Of a DNA stretch of 64,000 bases, positions 2,618-41,945 are shown one piece after another. The first letter of the stretch is position 1, and every line of letters begins with the position of its first letter. The stretch is from Acidimicrobiaceae bacterium. GTDB taxonomy: Bacteria; Actinomycetota; Acidimicrobiia; Acidimicrobiales; JACDCH01. A program made the position numbers and the translations under genes. The notes under the pieces are model-generated. The model was not told the origin of the DNA. It ran no database searches and saw only the letters and a program-made list of their open reading frames with translations. The stretch is taken from contig JBEEGH010000006.1 of assembly GCA_041166745.1 (NCBI GenBank), positions 34,033 through 98,032 of the forward strand, in the 5' to 3' direction.

Positions 2618-3157
2618 ATGACGGCCGTGCGCAAGATCGCCGAGATCGCCGAGGCGGCAGAACAGCGTGTCGACGACATCCGCAGCGAATACGCCCCGGA
2701 GGGCGAGCACCCCATCGGGTCGTACGCGGTGCTGCTCGCGACGTACGGCACCATGACCGCGGCACTGGGTGCGCTGGTGGCGAAGCGGCGCAAGCTGCCG
2801 GCGCGATTCGACGGTCGTGACTACGTCCTGCTCGGCGTGGCGACGCAGAAGTTGAGTCGGTTGGTGGCAAAGGACTCAGTAGGGGCCGCGATACGGGCGC
2901 CGTTCACTCGTTTCGAAGGGGCGACGGGCGAGGCCGAGGTGCAGGAGAAGGTGCGTGGCAGTGGTCTCCGTCACGCCATTGGCGAGCTCGTCACCTGTCC
3001 GTTCTGTCTCTCCGTTTGGATCGCGACGATCTTCTCGTTCGGCTTGGTGCTCGCGCCTCGCGCCACTCGTTTCGCGGCGTCGATCCTCGCGACGGTGACC
3101 CTTAGTGACTCGCTGCAGTTCGCGTACGCCCGGGTACAGCGCGCCGAGCACTCATAG
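2618..3157 (+). CDS. DUF1360 family membrane protein
   Basis: KLSRLVAKDSV...CPFCLSVWIATIFSF matches the DUF1360 CxxC-x2-W signature. ATG at 2618 chosen; the track ORF start at 2522 is probably an over-extension. Confidence 0.65.
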   Translation: MTAVRKIAEIAEAAEQRVDDIRSEYAPEGEHPIGSYAVLLATYGTMTAALGALVAKRRKLPARFDGRDYVLLGVATQKLSRLVAKDSVGAAIRAPFTRFEGATGEAEVQEKVRGSGLRHAIGELVTCPFCLSVWIATIFSFGLVLAPRATRFAASILATVTLSDSLQFAYARVQRAEHS

Positions 3158-3666
3158 ATTCGGCAGCGTCGACAGCAGTTGGTCGACGATGTCGGGCGGC
3201 GGTTCGCTGGCGTCCACCACGACGTTCGCGAGCTCGCCGTAACGGCCGGAGCGAGCCTCGGACTGTTGAAGGAGCTGCGGTGTCGGGTCCGAGGCGAGTG
3301 GGCGATGGCCTGCATGTGCGCCCGGTCGGCAAGTTCCTCGACATCGGCGCGCAACCAGATCACGACGGAGCGATCGTGCAACCGTGCTCGCAACGATGGG
3401 TCGTCCACAACCGACGCCGCCGCGGCGATCACGGCCGGGCGTTGTTCGTCGAGCGCATCCGCGAGCGCTCGCGCCTCCAGCGCGTGGAGGGCGTCTGGTC
3501 CTTCCTCGGCCTGCACTTCGCGCGCCGTGCGGTCTGTCATCGCCGCGAGTTGCATGTCGTTGTCGATGAATTCGCGCCCTGACCGTTGCGCCAGCAGGCG
3601 GCCGACCGTGGTCTTGCCCGAGCCCATGAGCCCGACGAGCACCCAGTGTCGTGACAAGGGTGGCAA
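3152..3666 (-). pseudogene. Shikimate kinase-family gene with an apparent 1-nt frameshift
   Basis: N-terminal part in one frame (VLVGLMGSGKTTVGRLLA Walker A, ...VVIWLRADVEELADR). C-terminal part in another frame (GAHAGHRPLASDPTPQLLQQSEARSGRYGELANVVVDASEPPPDIVDQLLSTLPNL*). The span is 515 nt, not a multiple of 3. The switch lies at the CCCGG run near 3319-3327. Confidence 0.6.
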
Positions 3667-3678
3667 TCAGCGTGCGAG

Positions 3679-4854
3679 CTAGAGACCCGTCCCGTGGGCC
3701 TGGTCGCACAGGCGTTGCTCGCCCGGCTTGATCTGGCCGGCGCCGACCCCTTCGAGCGCGGCGAACGGCCCGCACTCGTTGGTGGTGATCCACACATGGA
3801 TCATCGGGACCGGTTGCAACTTCACGAATGGCGAACGGCAGTTGCCGCTGCCGTCGGTGAGGCCGGTGACGCGTGGCGCGACGGGATCGTCGGTGAAGCA
3901 GAGGTTGTCGTGGATGTGCCACTGCGTGAGCGGCCCGCCGATGTCGGGAACGGTGTCGAGCGTCGAGCCCGGCTTCAGCATGAACATCGCGGCTTCGAGC
4001 ACGCGCTTGCCGGTGCGCGTGCTGTACACGAGCGCCTCGGGATGATCGGGATCGAGCACCTTGTCGTCGTCGATGTACGTCCAGTTGATGAGGTGCTCGT
4101 CGCCCGTTCCACCGTCACCGATCGTGTGGAAACCCGCGGCCTCCGCGACGGCGGGATCAGACCATTGCGGCAGGCGAACCAACGTGACGGCCACGAGGTT
4201 CTCGGCGCGCGCCTGCTGTTCGGGCGTGACTCCCGCAATGCCGCCGAGGTCGATCGGCTGGGTCGGGTCGTACCGCTTCACCGGCACGGCCGCGGCGGTA
4301 TCCGTGAGCGTGGCCTTGCCGTCGACCACCACCACCGACGCGTGGCTGTGACTGTGCACGTGGTTGCCGGCTTCGATCATCCCGGGCAGCGCGATGGCGA
4401 CGAGCAGCCCCGCGGAGAAGTTCGCGAGTCTCGGTCGTGCGAAGACCTGACGAGGTCGCCACGCAAAGGCCCCGGATTCGAGGGCGGCGTACAGCGCGAG
4501 CGCCGCGCAGAGCGCGTCAGCGAACTGGATCGGCTCGGCGACATCGAGACCCTCGATGAACGACAGGCCACTCTTCTTTGCGACGGCCCAGCAAACGACG
4601 AGCGCGCCGTTGAGCGCCAAGCCGACGAACGCCAGCCGCCGCGACGGCCATGCGAGCGCGGCGACGCCCCACGCGACTTGCAGCAGCGCAACGGCGGCGA
4701 AGACCTTCGCCGCTTGTGGGTGTTCCGCGTGCGAGCCGATCGCGGCGGCGTGAATCGCTCCTGCACTGATCGACGCCGCGCCGGCGATCAACAGCGGTCG
4801 TAGGTGATGATCACGAGAAGAGTCCCGCGGTGGTCGTTCGGTGGTCGCGGTCAC
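3679..4854 (-). CDS. Membrane protein of unknown function (N-terminal TM helices, large C-terminal domain)
   Basis: 391-aa ORF with hydrophobic N-terminal third and a His-rich segment (NHVHSHSH). The C-terminal part looks like real coding sequence. No family recognised. Confidence 0.6.
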   Translation of the reverse strand: MTATTERPPRDSSRDHHLRPLLIAGAASISAGAIHAAAIGSHAEHPQAAKVFAAVALLQVAWGVAALAWPSRRLAFVGLALNGALVVCWAVAKKSGLSFIEGLDVAEPIQFADALCAALALYAALESGAFAWRPRQVFARPRLANFSAGLLVAIALPGMIEAGNHVHSHSHASVVVVDGKATLTDTAAAVPVKRYDPTQPIDLGGIAGVTPEQQARAENLVAVTLVRLPQWSDPAVAEAAGFHTIGDGGTGDEHLINWTYIDDDKVLDPDHPEALVYSTRTGKRVLEAAMFMLKPGSTLDTVPDIGGPLTQWHIHDNLCFTDDPVAPRVTGLTDGSGNCRSPFVKLQPVPMIHVWITTNECGPFAALEGVGAGQIKPGEQRLCDQAHGTGL

Positions 4855-38970: not shown

Positions 38971-40167
38971 ATGCCTGTCATTGGGCAATACTCGCTCGAG
39001 CAACTGCTCAGCTCGAACGCCGAAGCCAACGTGTGGCGGGGGCGCTGCCATCGTCCGGTCGACCGCTCCGTCGCGGTCAAGCAGGTGCTGCCGCGCGACC
39101 CCGACGACGCCGCCCGCCTGCTCGAGGAGGTCACGACCCTCCTGGCCCTCGATCATCCGCATGTCGTTCGGGTGCTCGAGGTGCTCGACGGCGAGGACGG
39201 CGTCATCGTCGTGATGCAGTACGCCCCGGGTGGTTCGCTGGCGGAGCTTCTCGCCGAGCGCCGATGCCTCGACGCCGGCGAGACCGTGGCGATCGCCGCC
39301 CCGCTCGCGGATGCGCTCGCGTCGGCGCACCGGCATGGCATCGTCCACGGCGATGTGAAGCCCGCGAACGTGCTGTTCACGTCAGACGGCGAGCCGCTCC
39401 TTGCTGACTTCGGGGGTGGCATGCGAGGAACCGACGGCTACATCGCGCCGGAGGTGGCAGCGGGCGCAACGGTCGACGAGCGGGCCGACGTGTACGCGCT
39501 CGGCGTCGTGTGTCGCGAAGCCCTGGGGGGCGACGTACCCGACGAGCTCGCGTCAGTGCTCGATGCCGCGGTCGCGCCGAACCCGAACGATCGGCCGGCG
39601 AACGCAACTGAGCTGGCGCGTCTGCTGCGGGCCGCGGTGCCGGGTGACTCGGTGCGCCTGCCTCGTCCCGCCCTCGGCGCCGCCCGCGTACTCGGACCGC
39701 CGACACGACTGTTCGGACCGCGGCCGCCAGCCCGCAGCATCGCCCGCCGGGCGCGGTCGAAGTCACCGTTGCTGTTGATCCCGCTGTTGCTGCTGGCCGC
39801 GTTCGCATGGGTCCGTCAGGGTTCCGCCCGCCGCACCGCCGAACCGGTCGCGTGTGCCGGCGCGCCGATCCCGGTGCCCGCGGGCGCCCAGATCGTGCGG
39901 GCGGACACCGCGGGCATCGGCTGTCTCGCCACTGGCGTGTACGCGAGCGGCGTGCTCACCATCCGGTTGCAACCGACCGACCCCAGACCACGCCGCTTCG
40001 CGCTCGGGCTTCCCGGCGATCGCATTTTTCTGGGTGATTGGGATTGCGATGGTGCCGCGTCGCCGGCGCTGTTCCGTCCGTCGACCGGCGCGACGCTCTA
40101 CTACGACACGTGGTCGGCGATCGAAACACCGTCAGACAACGCGAATCGCTGTCGTTCGATCGGCTGA
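38971..40167 (+). CDS. Membrane Ser/Thr protein kinase (Hanks type, non-RD, atypical Gly-loop) with extracytoplasmic domain
   Basis: VAVK, HGIVHGDVKPANVLF (HGD instead of HRD), LADFG and GYIAPE. TM SPLLLIPLLLLAAFAW. C-terminal GDWDCDGAASPALF is FG-GAP/VCBS-like. Confidence 0.85.
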   Translation: MPVIGQYSLEQLLSSNAEANVWRGRCHRPVDRSVAVKQVLPRDPDDAARLLEEVTTLLALDHPHVVRVLEVLDGEDGVIVVMQYAPGGSLAELLAERRCLDAGETVAIAAPLADALASAHRHGIVHGDVKPANVLFTSDGEPLLADFGGGMRGTDGYIAPEVAAGATVDERADVYALGVVCREALGGDVPDELASVLDAAVAPNPNDRPANATELARLLRAAVPGDSVRLPRPALGAARVLGPPTRLFGPRPPARSIARRARSKSPLLLIPLLLLAAFAWVRQGSARRTAEPVACAGAPIPVPAGAQIVRADTAGIGCLATGVYASGVLTIRLQPTDPRPRRFALGLPGDRIFLGDWDCDGAASPALFRPSTGATLYYDTWSAIETPSDNANRCRSIG

Positions 40168-40340
40168 CTGCTTGTGGGTGTTCCTGTGGGCATCCGGTGG
40201 ACGAACGTCGAGAAGTGGGGACAACGAAAAAGGTTCGGGGATAACCCTGGGGATCTCGCGTTCTGCTATTGACGTTCGACGCGCGTTGATCGAAAGTCCC
40301 CTTACCGCAGCGATCCGAACGGAACGTGAACGGGAGGAGA

Positions 40341-40690
40341 CCGAAAGCTTCGGCTGACGGAAGATCACCCGGGAGCGAACCACGTAGGAATGTTGCGGGA
40401 GGGCGAGAAGTTCTGCCGCCCGCCTGGAAGAGCGGCTTCGGCCAATCGGAAGGGCGGTCCGCAAGGTGGTGGGGGCAACCCCAAGAACCGGCGGAATGTG
40501 GCTGAACCGCTTCGGCGGAACAGCTGCAAAAGGGCATCGCCCGCCAGAGCCTCGGCTCCGACGGGCGATGTGAGTGATTTGAAGTGAGGGTAACCCCTCA
40601 CCAAGATCGCTTGGCGGACTCTCGACCGACGGGTAGCCCTGGGCTGCGAACGGCTTCGGCCAATCGGAGTGCAGGGCTGCTTGCTTTTTG
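40341..40690 (+). ncRNA. Candidate structured RNA or long attenuator-type leader (unclassified)
   Basis: No credible ORF. Tandem hairpins with UUCG/CUCG/UAAC/AUCG loops. An 18-nt exact repeat CGGCTTCGGCCAATCGGA occurs at 40433-40450 and 40651-40668. The terminal hairpin (40635-40678) is followed by GCTTGCTTTTTG. Confidence 0.3.
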
Positions 40691-40702
40691 CGCCGGGATA
40701 CG

Positions 40703-41773
40703 GTGACCGTCATCGCTGAACCGACCATCGATCCGTGGGCCGCCATCGTCGGCCAAGACTTCGCCGTCACGCAGTTACGCGCCGCGTCGAAGCGTCCGAT
40801 CCACGCGTACTTGCTCGTCGGGCCGCGGGGGAGTGGCAAACGCCAGCTCGCGCGAGCGTTCGCGGCCACGCTGCTCGCGTCGACGTCCGATGACCCCGAT
40901 CGCGCCGTGCGGCTCGTGCTCGCCGGGCGGCATCCGGATCTGCACGAGTTCGAGCGCGCCGGTCCGTACATCACCGTCGAACAGGCCGACGCGATCATCC
41001 GTGAGTCGAGCCGCAGTGGGGTGGAGAGCGACCGCAAGGCGTTGGTGCTCGTCGATTTTCATCTCGTGCAGGCTGCGGTCGAGGGCAAGCTCCTCAAGAG
41101 CATCGAGGAACCGCCGGGCGACACGGTCTTCATCGTGCTGGCCGAGTCGGTGCCCACGTTGCTCGAGCCGATCGCCTCGCGCTGCGTGCGCATCGATGTC
41201 GATCCCCTACCCGACTCGGTCGTCTCGACGGCACTGGTGTCGTCGGGTGTCGACGCAGCTGTGGCCGACGAAGTCGCGATCGCCGCACGGGGTGATCTCG
41301 AACGGGCTCGACTGTTGGCCACCGACCCGCGCTTCTCCTTGCGACGCGCACGATGGCGCACGATTCCGGAGCAGATCGACGGCACGGGTGCCGCGGTCGC
41401 GCGTCTCGTCGCAGAGGTGCGAGCGATGATCGACGACGCCGCCCAGCCGGTACAGGCCCGTCACGCCGAAGAGATCGCCGAGCTCGAGGCGCGCATCGAG
41501 CGTTACGGCGAACGCGGCTCCGGTAAGACGCAGCTCGTCGACCGGCACCGTCGCGAGCTCCGGCGCCACCGCACCGACGAGATCCGCTTCGGGCTTGCCA
41601 CCATGGCGGCCCGCTACCGCGACGAGCTCACGCTGCAGCCGGGGATGGCGATCGACGCGATCGGCGCCATCGAGGACTCGCACAAGTCGATGGAGCGCAA
41701 CCCCAACGAGACGTTGCTGCTGCACGCGCTGCTCCTGCGCCTGCCGGCCATCGCAACTGCCGTGCCGGCCTGA
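40703..41773 (+). CDS. holB: DNA polymerase III subunit delta'
   Basis: HAYLLVGPRGSGKRQLARAFA P-loop, LVLVDFH, and the SIEEPPGDTVFIVLA clamp-loader box. Start is GTG 40703 or TTG 40688. Confidence 0.85.
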   Translation: MTVIAEPTIDPWAAIVGQDFAVTQLRAASKRPIHAYLLVGPRGSGKRQLARAFAATLLASTSDDPDRAVRLVLAGRHPDLHEFERAGPYITVEQADAIIRESSRSGVESDRKALVLVDFHLVQAAVEGKLLKSIEEPPGDTVFIVLAESVPTLLEPIASRCVRIDVDPLPDSVVSTALVSSGVDAAVADEVAIAARGDLERARLLATDPRFSLRRARWRTIPEQIDGTGAAVARLVAEVRAMIDDAAQPVQARHAEEIAELEARIERYGERGSGKTQLVDRHRRELRRHRTDEIRFGLATMAARYRDELTLQPGMAIDAIGAIEDSHKSMERNPNETLLLHALLLRLPAIATAVPA

Positions 41774-41802: not shown

Positions 41803-41875
41803 GCCCGGGTAGCTCAGACGGCAGAGCAGCTCACTCGTAATGAGCAGGTCAGGAGTTCGATTCTCCTCTCGGGCT
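41803..41875 (+). tRNA. tRNA-Thr: tRNA-Thr (anticodon CGU)
   Basis: Cloverleaf by eye: acceptor GCCCGGG/CTCGGGC (one G-U), D arm GCTC-AGACGGC-AGAGC, anticodon stem-loop AGCTC-ACTCGTAA-TGAGC, and T arm AGGAG-TTCGATT-CTCCT. Confidence 0.9.
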
Positions 41876-41945
41876 CCGAACATTTTTCGTAAGAACACGC
41901 ATCTCCCTGGATCAACCGTGCAGCACGACGATCCGGGAGGACGCA

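Follow-up and report, generated by a model that had tools for sequence, protein, structure and literature searches.

A putative stand-alone structured RNA gene of the Acidimicrobiales behind a DnaA-box-like array

The 64,000-nucleotide stretch of DNA analyzed here (the window; NCBI GenBank assembly GCA_041166745.1, contig JBEEGH010000006.1, positions 34,033 to 98,032) comes from an Acidimicrobiaceae bacterium whose metagenome-assembled genome (4.5 Mb, 34 contigs) has a completeness of 98%. Between a Ser/Thr protein kinase gene and holB, the window carries a 535-bp spacer that an initial annotation, made from the sequence alone, described as a non-coding stretch packed with hairpins. The spacer consists of two parts, an upstream control region and a structured RNA, a division first suggested by an alignment with six homologues. 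Comparative analysis shows that positions 40304-40690 behave as a conserved, single-copy gene for a predicted structured RNA, with a covariation-supported fold and promoter-like and terminator-like ends. The RNA family is absent from Rfam 15 and, among the sampled genomes, restricted to the order Acidimicrobiales. The main features of the locus, in window coordinates, are the following.

38971-40167, + strand: Ser/Thr protein kinase gene (Pfam Pkinase, 7e-30), upstream context
40168-40303: DNA-level control region, which as RNA folds no better than shuffles (z +0.19)
40171-40257, + strand: six same-strand DnaA-box-like 9-mers, spaced ~11-12 and 20 bp start to start
40269-40297, + strand: predicted promoter (-35 TTGACG at 40269-74, 17-nt spacer, -10 GAAAGT at 40292-97)
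40304-40690, + strand: predicted structured non-coding RNA of 387 nt (minimum free energy (MFE) -206.1 kcal/mol, z -7.72)
40703 (GTG; or TTG at 40688)-41773, + strand: holB, for DNA polymerase III delta' (Pfam DNA_pol3_delta2, 5e-26), downstream context

The spacer region is poorer in GC than its surroundings, as the initial annotation had remarked (0.57-0.65 over 40100-40700 vs 0.69-0.75 in the flanks, measured in 200-nt windows). Several open frames of 59-301 codons occur on both strands and, together with an internal 21-mer duplication, they are what speaks for a small protein gene or for a degenerate mobile-element or repeat remnant at this site. However, the overlapping frames between the kinase stop at 40167 and holB have no counterpart in Pfam, and homologues do not conserve them. 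The earlier view that no credible open reading frame lies here therefore holds; no conserved small protein was found, and small-protein coding was rejected on these grounds. Large insertions and deletions separate the relatives, whereas substitutions preserve base pairs, and each genome carries one copy. A protein gene or a remnant is thus extremely improbable.

For the 387-nt RNA, the MFE fold equals the centroid and agrees with the fold obtained by comparison of relatives. Folding of the whole stretch gives z -5.8 for the + strand vs z -4.3 for the - strand. The predicted RNA can be divided into the following parts, where hairpin numbers are those of the initial annotation, which had drawn seven hairpins by eye.

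40305-40398, + strand: 5' domain, closed by helix P1 (40305-12 / 40391-98)
40342-59, + strand: UUCG hairpin inside the 5' domain (hairpin 1)
40399-40411, + strand: conserved purine-rich linker (GGGAGGGCGAG at 40397-40407; GGGAGGACGAG in relatives)
40412-40618, + strand: central domain, closed by long-range helix P3 (40412-17 UCUGCC / 40613-18 GGCGGA)
40416-40457, + strand: inserted hairpin (hairpin 2), bearing copy 1 of the 21-mer (40430-50)
40501-40524, + strand: P4, a UUCG-capped hairpin (hairpin 3)
40534-40571, + strand: hairpin A, in which the CCCGCC/GACGGG box is invariant and a C-A mismatch is conserved (isolated fold -27.6 kcal/mol, z -4.4)
40572-40612, + strand: hairpin B, with outer helix 40572-79/40605-12 and apical hairpin 40584-40601, which has a conserved UAAC loop (AGGcUAACgCC)
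40633-80, + strand: branched terminator hairpin (-37 kcal/mol, z -4.85), followed by the U-tract (UUGCUUUUUG) to 40690

Hairpins 1, 3, 4, 5, and 7 were recovered by both the energy fold and the comparative fold. Hairpin 2 appears only in the energy fold because most relatives lack it: it is present in the window and in the relative L012, and absent from L013, L004/L037, L005, L006, and L007. Together with the repeat copy that it carries, this hairpin is a recent lineage-specific insertion. Hairpin 6 (40602-40613) did not survive as a hairpin of its own; these nucleotides belong to a longer helix, 40572-40579/40605-40612, as its 3' side. The 18-mer CGGCTTCGGCCAATCGGA, reported earlier to occur twice, is present in exactly two copies in the 64-kb window (40433-40450 and 40651-40668; 0.01 expected by chance) and is part of a 21-mer repeat whose copies differ at one position; the second of them (40648-68) lies in the terminator hairpin. 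The purine-rich linker is largely unpaired in the consensus fold and partly paired in the single-sequence energy fold.

Covariation supplies the main support for the fold. A full-length consensus was computed with RNAalifold from a MAFFT-based alignment of 11 sequences from the families closest to the window. It contains 74 pairs, for which 93.6% of cells are paired, vs 30-43% with slid partners, and 21 pairs are changed on both sides. For the two-hairpin core (hairpins A and B; 34 sequences, six families), 91.6% of cells are paired vs 21-44% after sliding, 21 of the 28 pairs are doubly changed, and not one of 500 shuffles reached any of the observed measures. The core alignment was fitted to a covariance model, which favors structure; the conclusion is nevertheless safe, because the effect size is large and the MAFFT-based full-length result agrees with it.

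The support extends to the individual helices. In P1, 93% of cells are paired, and both G-U and compensatory changes occur; P3 reaches 96.7%, with an AU/GC compensatory column; three of four consensus pairs of P4 are changed on both sides. Both the outer and the apical stem of hairpin A covary across the 34 sequences (helix 1: 96.1% paired, five doubly changed pairs; helix 2: three of four). All nine pairs of the outer helix of hairpin B are changed on both sides between families, and its apical stem, also covarying, is 99% paired. The terminator hairpin covaries in the 11-sequence alignment as well, and a simple scan calls a T-tract terminator there; nearly all homologues have a hairpin at the 3' end, in most cases followed by a T-run. 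As an alternative to its P1 partner, the 5' ACCGC of other genera can also pair locally with GCGGU. Hairpin A is near-palindromic, such that the covariance model gives its reverse strand ~30 bits (window 40535-40570, L012, L039, and L040); reverse-strand matches of this kind were removed from the alignments.

Three elements are near-invariant across the family. The first is UCGCCCGCC...GACGGGCGA, a helix of G-C pairs that includes a C-A mismatch and has a covarying outer stem (e.g., CUCACCCGCC with GACGGGUGAG); the second is AGGcUAACgCC, in which a UAAC loop is borne by a covarying stem; and the third is GGUGGAU. The partner of GGUGGA is an upstream AUCCACC in the window's group; the window genus has the compensatory GGCGGA/UCUGCC in place of this pair. 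Conversely, in family f7, the near-invariant GGUGGA often pairs with a local UCCACC just downstream. As DNA, the P3 words GGUGGAU and AUCCACC, which are near-invariant in the RNA, resemble DnaA boxes (e.g., GTTATCCACC in L039). They are preferably read as strands of an RNA helix because of the compensatory pair in the window genus. The distance from promoter to core varies from 186 to 663 nt and total length from ~350 to 830 nt, the extra length of longer members consisting mostly of GNRA- or UUCG-capped hairpins. The alignments thus show a family core comprising hairpins A and B, the adjoining GGUGGA/UCCACC helix, and the terminator hairpin, with variable expansion segments between members.

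Two covariance models were used to chart the distribution of the RNA. The first, of the 95-nt core formed by hairpins A and B, was run on 401 sampled Acidimicrobiia, of which 29 have the RNA, each in a single copy; these 29 belong to six families (f1, f5, f7, f27, f31, and f34), all of the window's order. The second, derived from 34 sequences and applied to a phylum-wide sample of 401 genomes, gave matches in Acidimicrobiales only, apart from a spurious one. That weak match outside the class (G508) covers hairpin A alone and lies antisense to a tRNA, and it was discarded. DNA searches retrieved full-length homologues from the window's genus and from other genera of its family.

These homologues bear on whether the element serves holB. 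The initial annotation had left two readings side by side: an independent RNA of ~350-400 nt, or an attenuator-type leader, which would act in cis, its hairpins and terminator setting how much transcription continues into holB. Its observation that the final hairpin and U-tract lie close to holB is correct, as the U-tract ends at 40690 and the GTG start of holB follows 13 nt further. Furthermore, sequence inspection and a simple consensus scan found no promoter belonging to holB itself, and RNA and holB are adjacent in three species of the genus (the window, L012, and L013). Within hairpin B, the words TTGAAG and CAAGAT, separated by 17 nt (40579-40610), form a second promoter-like pair; we do not think that it serves holB, since a transcript from it would still run into the terminator. 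Outside the window's genus, however, holB is not found downstream, and the same RNA, promoter, and terminator stand beside unrelated genes. Elsewhere in the window's family these are a WS/DGAT gene upstream (L004), a histidine kinase gene and DUF480 (L006), or AzlC (L007). Members from f7 are usually divergent from an HMGL-like (leuA-type) gene and have an aminotransferase IV or arginase-family gene downstream.

Conversely, neither the RNA nor the kinase has a match at six related holB loci (70-79% identity of the holB protein), three of which have an FtsK-like gene immediately upstream of holB instead, and the element matches no riboswitch, T-box, or leader family. The conserved linkage to a downstream gene that a leader should exhibit is thus not seen in the synteny, and a cis-acting holB leader was rejected as very unlikely. 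The independent-RNA reading stands instead, because each genus has other neighbors and only that of the window has holB downstream; the RNA is single-copy, has a predicted promoter and terminator of its own, both conserved, and occurs in six families amid unrelated flanks.

The region directly upstream of the RNA was misjudged earlier. The initial annotation counted these first ~135 nt (40168-40303) as structured RNA and overlooked both a predicted promoter and the DnaA-box-like array; the z-score near zero is consistent with a promoter and upstream sites instead. When six homologues are aligned with the window, TTGAC is invariant, the spacer stays at 17-18 nt although its sequence varies, and a NANN(G)T hexamer is retained, with UACCGCAGCG kept 6-7 nt past this -10-like hexamer. 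The segment is read as a promoter because an invariant hexamer part, a variable spacer of fixed length, and a kept second hexamer are what a promoter, and not an RNA helix, looks like in an alignment. Across 23 recognized promoters, most have (GU)ACCG 6-10 nt after the -10-like hexamer, and all but one lack T at the first position of that hexamer. The upstream region is about as well conserved between families as the RNA core, and its blocks are kept in 22 promoters of several families. Their conserved order is given below.

Blocks 1-2: CTGTG... and C(T/G)GTG..., then GGTGGA(C/T)GA
Blocks 3-5: CTG(G/T)GGAnAA, (G/T)G(G/T)GGATAAC, and CCTG(G/T)G...
Blocks 6-7: an A-rich stretch (AAAATACC in f7), then TTGACC, 17-18 nt, and (C/G)A(G/A)AGT

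The six 9-mers of the window are listed here, with bit scores, where available, from a position weight matrix (PWM) built from the boxes at the genome's own dnaA/oriC.

40173-81, + strand: DnaA-box-like 9-mer 1, TGTGGGTGT
40185-93, + strand: DnaA-box-like 9-mer 2, TGTGGGCAT, 7.5 bits
40196-204, + strand: DnaA-box-like 9-mer 3, GGTGGACGA, 10.4 bits
40216-24, + strand: DnaA-box-like 9-mer 4, TGGGGACAA, 13.2 bits
40236-44, + strand: DnaA-box-like 9-mer 5, CGGGGATAA, 6.6 bits
40248-56, + strand: DnaA-box-like 9-mer 6, TGGGGATCT

All belong to the word family TG(T/G)GGA(C/T)(A/G)(A/G), which corresponds, on the opposite strand, to the DnaA-box consensus of actinobacteria in its relaxed form. The window genome carries TGTGGACAG, TTGTCCACA, CGGGGACAATCCGTGGACG, and GGGGGACAA near dnaA and between dnaA and dnaN, and eight relatives have dense clusters of the same 9-mer family upstream of dnaA and in the dnaA-dnaN spacer. 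The promoter is thus preceded by several clustered, phased 9-mers that match the organism's own DnaA-box consensus. A degenerate box pattern has 52 matches within 110 bp upstream of the -35 element in the 23 RNA promoters, every one on the RNA-sense strand. Most are offset from the -35 by about -33, -53, or -73, and others by about -85, -20, or -107. The background in the same loci is 0.12 boxes per 110 bp, which the promoters exceed ~18-fold. For ranking clusters genome-wide, counting same-strand triples worked better than PWM counts at 7 bits, which were noisy, or exact words, which were sparse. Same-strand triples within 70 bp occur at 11 places in the 4.5-Mb genome, among them oriC and the RNA promoter. 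Judging from these patterns, the six phased 9-mers may well be DnaA boxes that control the RNA promoter.

Boxes of this kind raise the question of whether the DNA itself is the key element and the transcript secondary. The array would then titrate or reactivate DnaA, as do datA, DARS, or the B. subtilis and Streptomyces clusters. Non-origin clusters of DnaA boxes are known in other bacteria, which counts in favor of this explanation, as do the conservation and phasing of the six boxes and the location of the RNA gene at 18-45% of the chromosome from oriC in five complete genomes, although no constant position relative to oriC was found among them. However, the RNA body is more strongly conserved than the boxes, and selection on DNA alone leaves its base-pair-keeping covariation unexplained; a purely DNA-level role is thus quite unlikely. 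Titration of DnaA and an RNA gene could, on the other hand, coexist at the locus. Known DnaA-regulated promoters and clusters (E. coli dnaA and nrdAB; B. subtilis sda, ywlC, and yydA) likewise have close-set boxes in one orientation that precede a promoter at a distance from oriC. Unlike the present locus, where boxes predicted from sequence precede a gene for a structured non-coding RNA, the E. coli and B. subtilis cases concern protein genes.

Comparison with known RNA families supports the earlier impression that the RNA is not RNase P, transfer-messenger, signal recognition particle, or 6S RNA. Rfam 15 has no match at E<=1 in 39500-41500, and a search of six homologous loci returned nothing relevant. 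The RNase P RNA of the genome lies elsewhere (C5:290994-291348, 219.8 bits), and ARAGORN reported only a tRNA-Thr in the window. For 6S RNA (RF00013), no match at E<=1 was obtained anywhere in the 98%-complete genome, while the positive control was found in five known genomes. 6S RNA is generally missing in Actinobacteria, where Ms1, which is hard to find by sequence, takes a related role; Ms1 binds the RNA polymerase core and shows synteny with genes for a HAD-IB hydrolase and an oxidoreductase (PMC9130861).

This background makes it conceivable that the new RNA is a functional analog of 6S or Ms1: an abundant RNA that would bind RNA polymerase, either the core or the holoenzyme, and adjust transcription to the state of growth. 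Consistent with such a role, the genome has no detectable 6S RNA, and the new RNA is likewise an independent gene of a few hundred nucleotides whose size and predicted promoter and terminator of its own fit the class. However, 6S RNA, which binds the sigma-70-type holoenzyme and templates pRNA, is a rod with paired 5' and 3' ends and a large central bubble that imitates an open promoter. In the consensus and MFE folds of the new RNA, by contrast, P1 closes the 5' domain, P3 closes a second, central one, and a terminator hairpin stands at the 3' end. Its members, moreover, reach ~830 nt and have no Rfam match. [quoted passage not shown] An analog of 6S or Ms1 is therefore unlikely.

Another large RNA known from the class is the raiA motif RNA, which also occurs in Acidimicrobiia (PMC10861870). 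The raiA model (RF03072) matched 25 of the 401 Acidimicrobiia (families f22, f28, f33, f35, f11, f15, f37, and f5), with no match in the region or elsewhere in the window genome. The raiA consensus looks unrelated to the new RNA, and one genome (G021) carries both at separate loci. Unlike the new RNA gene, the three raiA genes that were examined have no DnaA-box array upstream. The family ranges of the two RNAs are nearly complementary (the new RNA in f1, f7, f27, f31, and f34, and both only in f5, through G021); with one shared genome observed vs 1.8 expected, this is not significant. In general architecture, the new RNA resembles raiA, OLE, ROOL, and GOLLD, which are orphan structured RNAs of medium to large size in bacteria: it appears as a stand-alone gene with a predicted promoter and terminator, and it has many covarying helices, a core of invariant nucleotides, variable expansions, and a distribution confined to one lineage. 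A literature search found no published description of the new RNA, or of any small or non-coding RNA gene under DnaA control.

Taken as a whole, the locus is best explained as a stand-alone structured RNA gene behind a DnaA-box-controlled promoter, the member in this genome of an uncatalogued Acidimicrobiales family. We consider this complete reading probable, though some way from certain. Transcription would start near A40304, from TTGACG-17 nt-GAAAGT, and would stop at the hairpin and U-tract ending at 40690. DnaA occupancy of the six-box array would set the amount of RNA made. Activation is our guess for its sign, because the boxes stand upstream of a perfect -35 that is paired with a -10 lacking T at position 1 in nearly every promoter. 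More speculatively, the RNA may act in trans by way of its sequence-invariant core, either binding protein or serving as a scaffold, with the two hairpins, their C-A mismatch, and their UAAC loop forming a docking site for a protein or other macromolecule, and its level may follow DnaA status. For the window genus, read-through of the imperfect, interrupted U-tract probably also helps to express holB, since holB begins 13 nt beyond it and no promoter of its own was found. This would be a local effect of gene order and not the function of the family. An analogy is offered by E. coli ssrS and ygfA, which are co-transcribed.

Several observations weigh against the DnaA-box-controlled RNA gene as described. 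The -10 hexamer is weak, and a simple consensus scan calls no promoter because it matches TATAAT so poorly. Only two of the array boxes score >=10 bits, and the PWM hit count at 7 bits did not rank the RNA-promoter cluster among the top windows of the genome. Within the window genome alone, the array is thus only moderately unusual, and the case for DnaA draws on conservation across families. The boxes at RNA promoters favor GGATAA and those at oriC GGACAA; therefore, another DNA-binding protein may be involved. Finally, f7 departs from the window's group in how the 5' part folds and in the topology of the GGUGGA helix, and neither a single consistent fold of the 5' half nor an upstream GGUGGA partner emerged in that family.

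A bolder extension of the RNA-gene reading is a replication-coupled riboregulator, in which the DnaA array would gate a large RNA whose level reports the state of initiation to transcription, translation, or the replisome, with read-through into holB as a direct link in the window genus. We regard this proposal as tentative and rather doubtful. Apart from it, the finding adds an order-wide class of structured RNA to a poorly studied, mostly uncultured actinobacterial lineage without detectable 6S RNA. The combination of an invariant core with variable arms points to a specific molecular partner, and the promoter seems to be wired to the replication initiator.

Some further observations concern the neighboring genes. 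The tRNA-Thr (CGU) gene of the window lies at 41803-41877, 30 nt past the holB stop, and a relative (G224) has a tRNA gene (L038:1038-1121) a few hundred nucleotides upstream of the promoter region of its RNA gene. At three holB loci without the kinase and RNA genes (L016, L018, and L019; holB at 3001-4002), an FHA/FtsK (EssC-like) ATPase gene stands directly upstream of holB in divergent orientation; the FtsK-like match, on the other strand, stops near 2884-2934. As this arrangement occurs in other genera, with neither kinase nor RNA gene, the adjacency of ATPase and holB is older than the kinase-plus-RNA insertion of the window genus.

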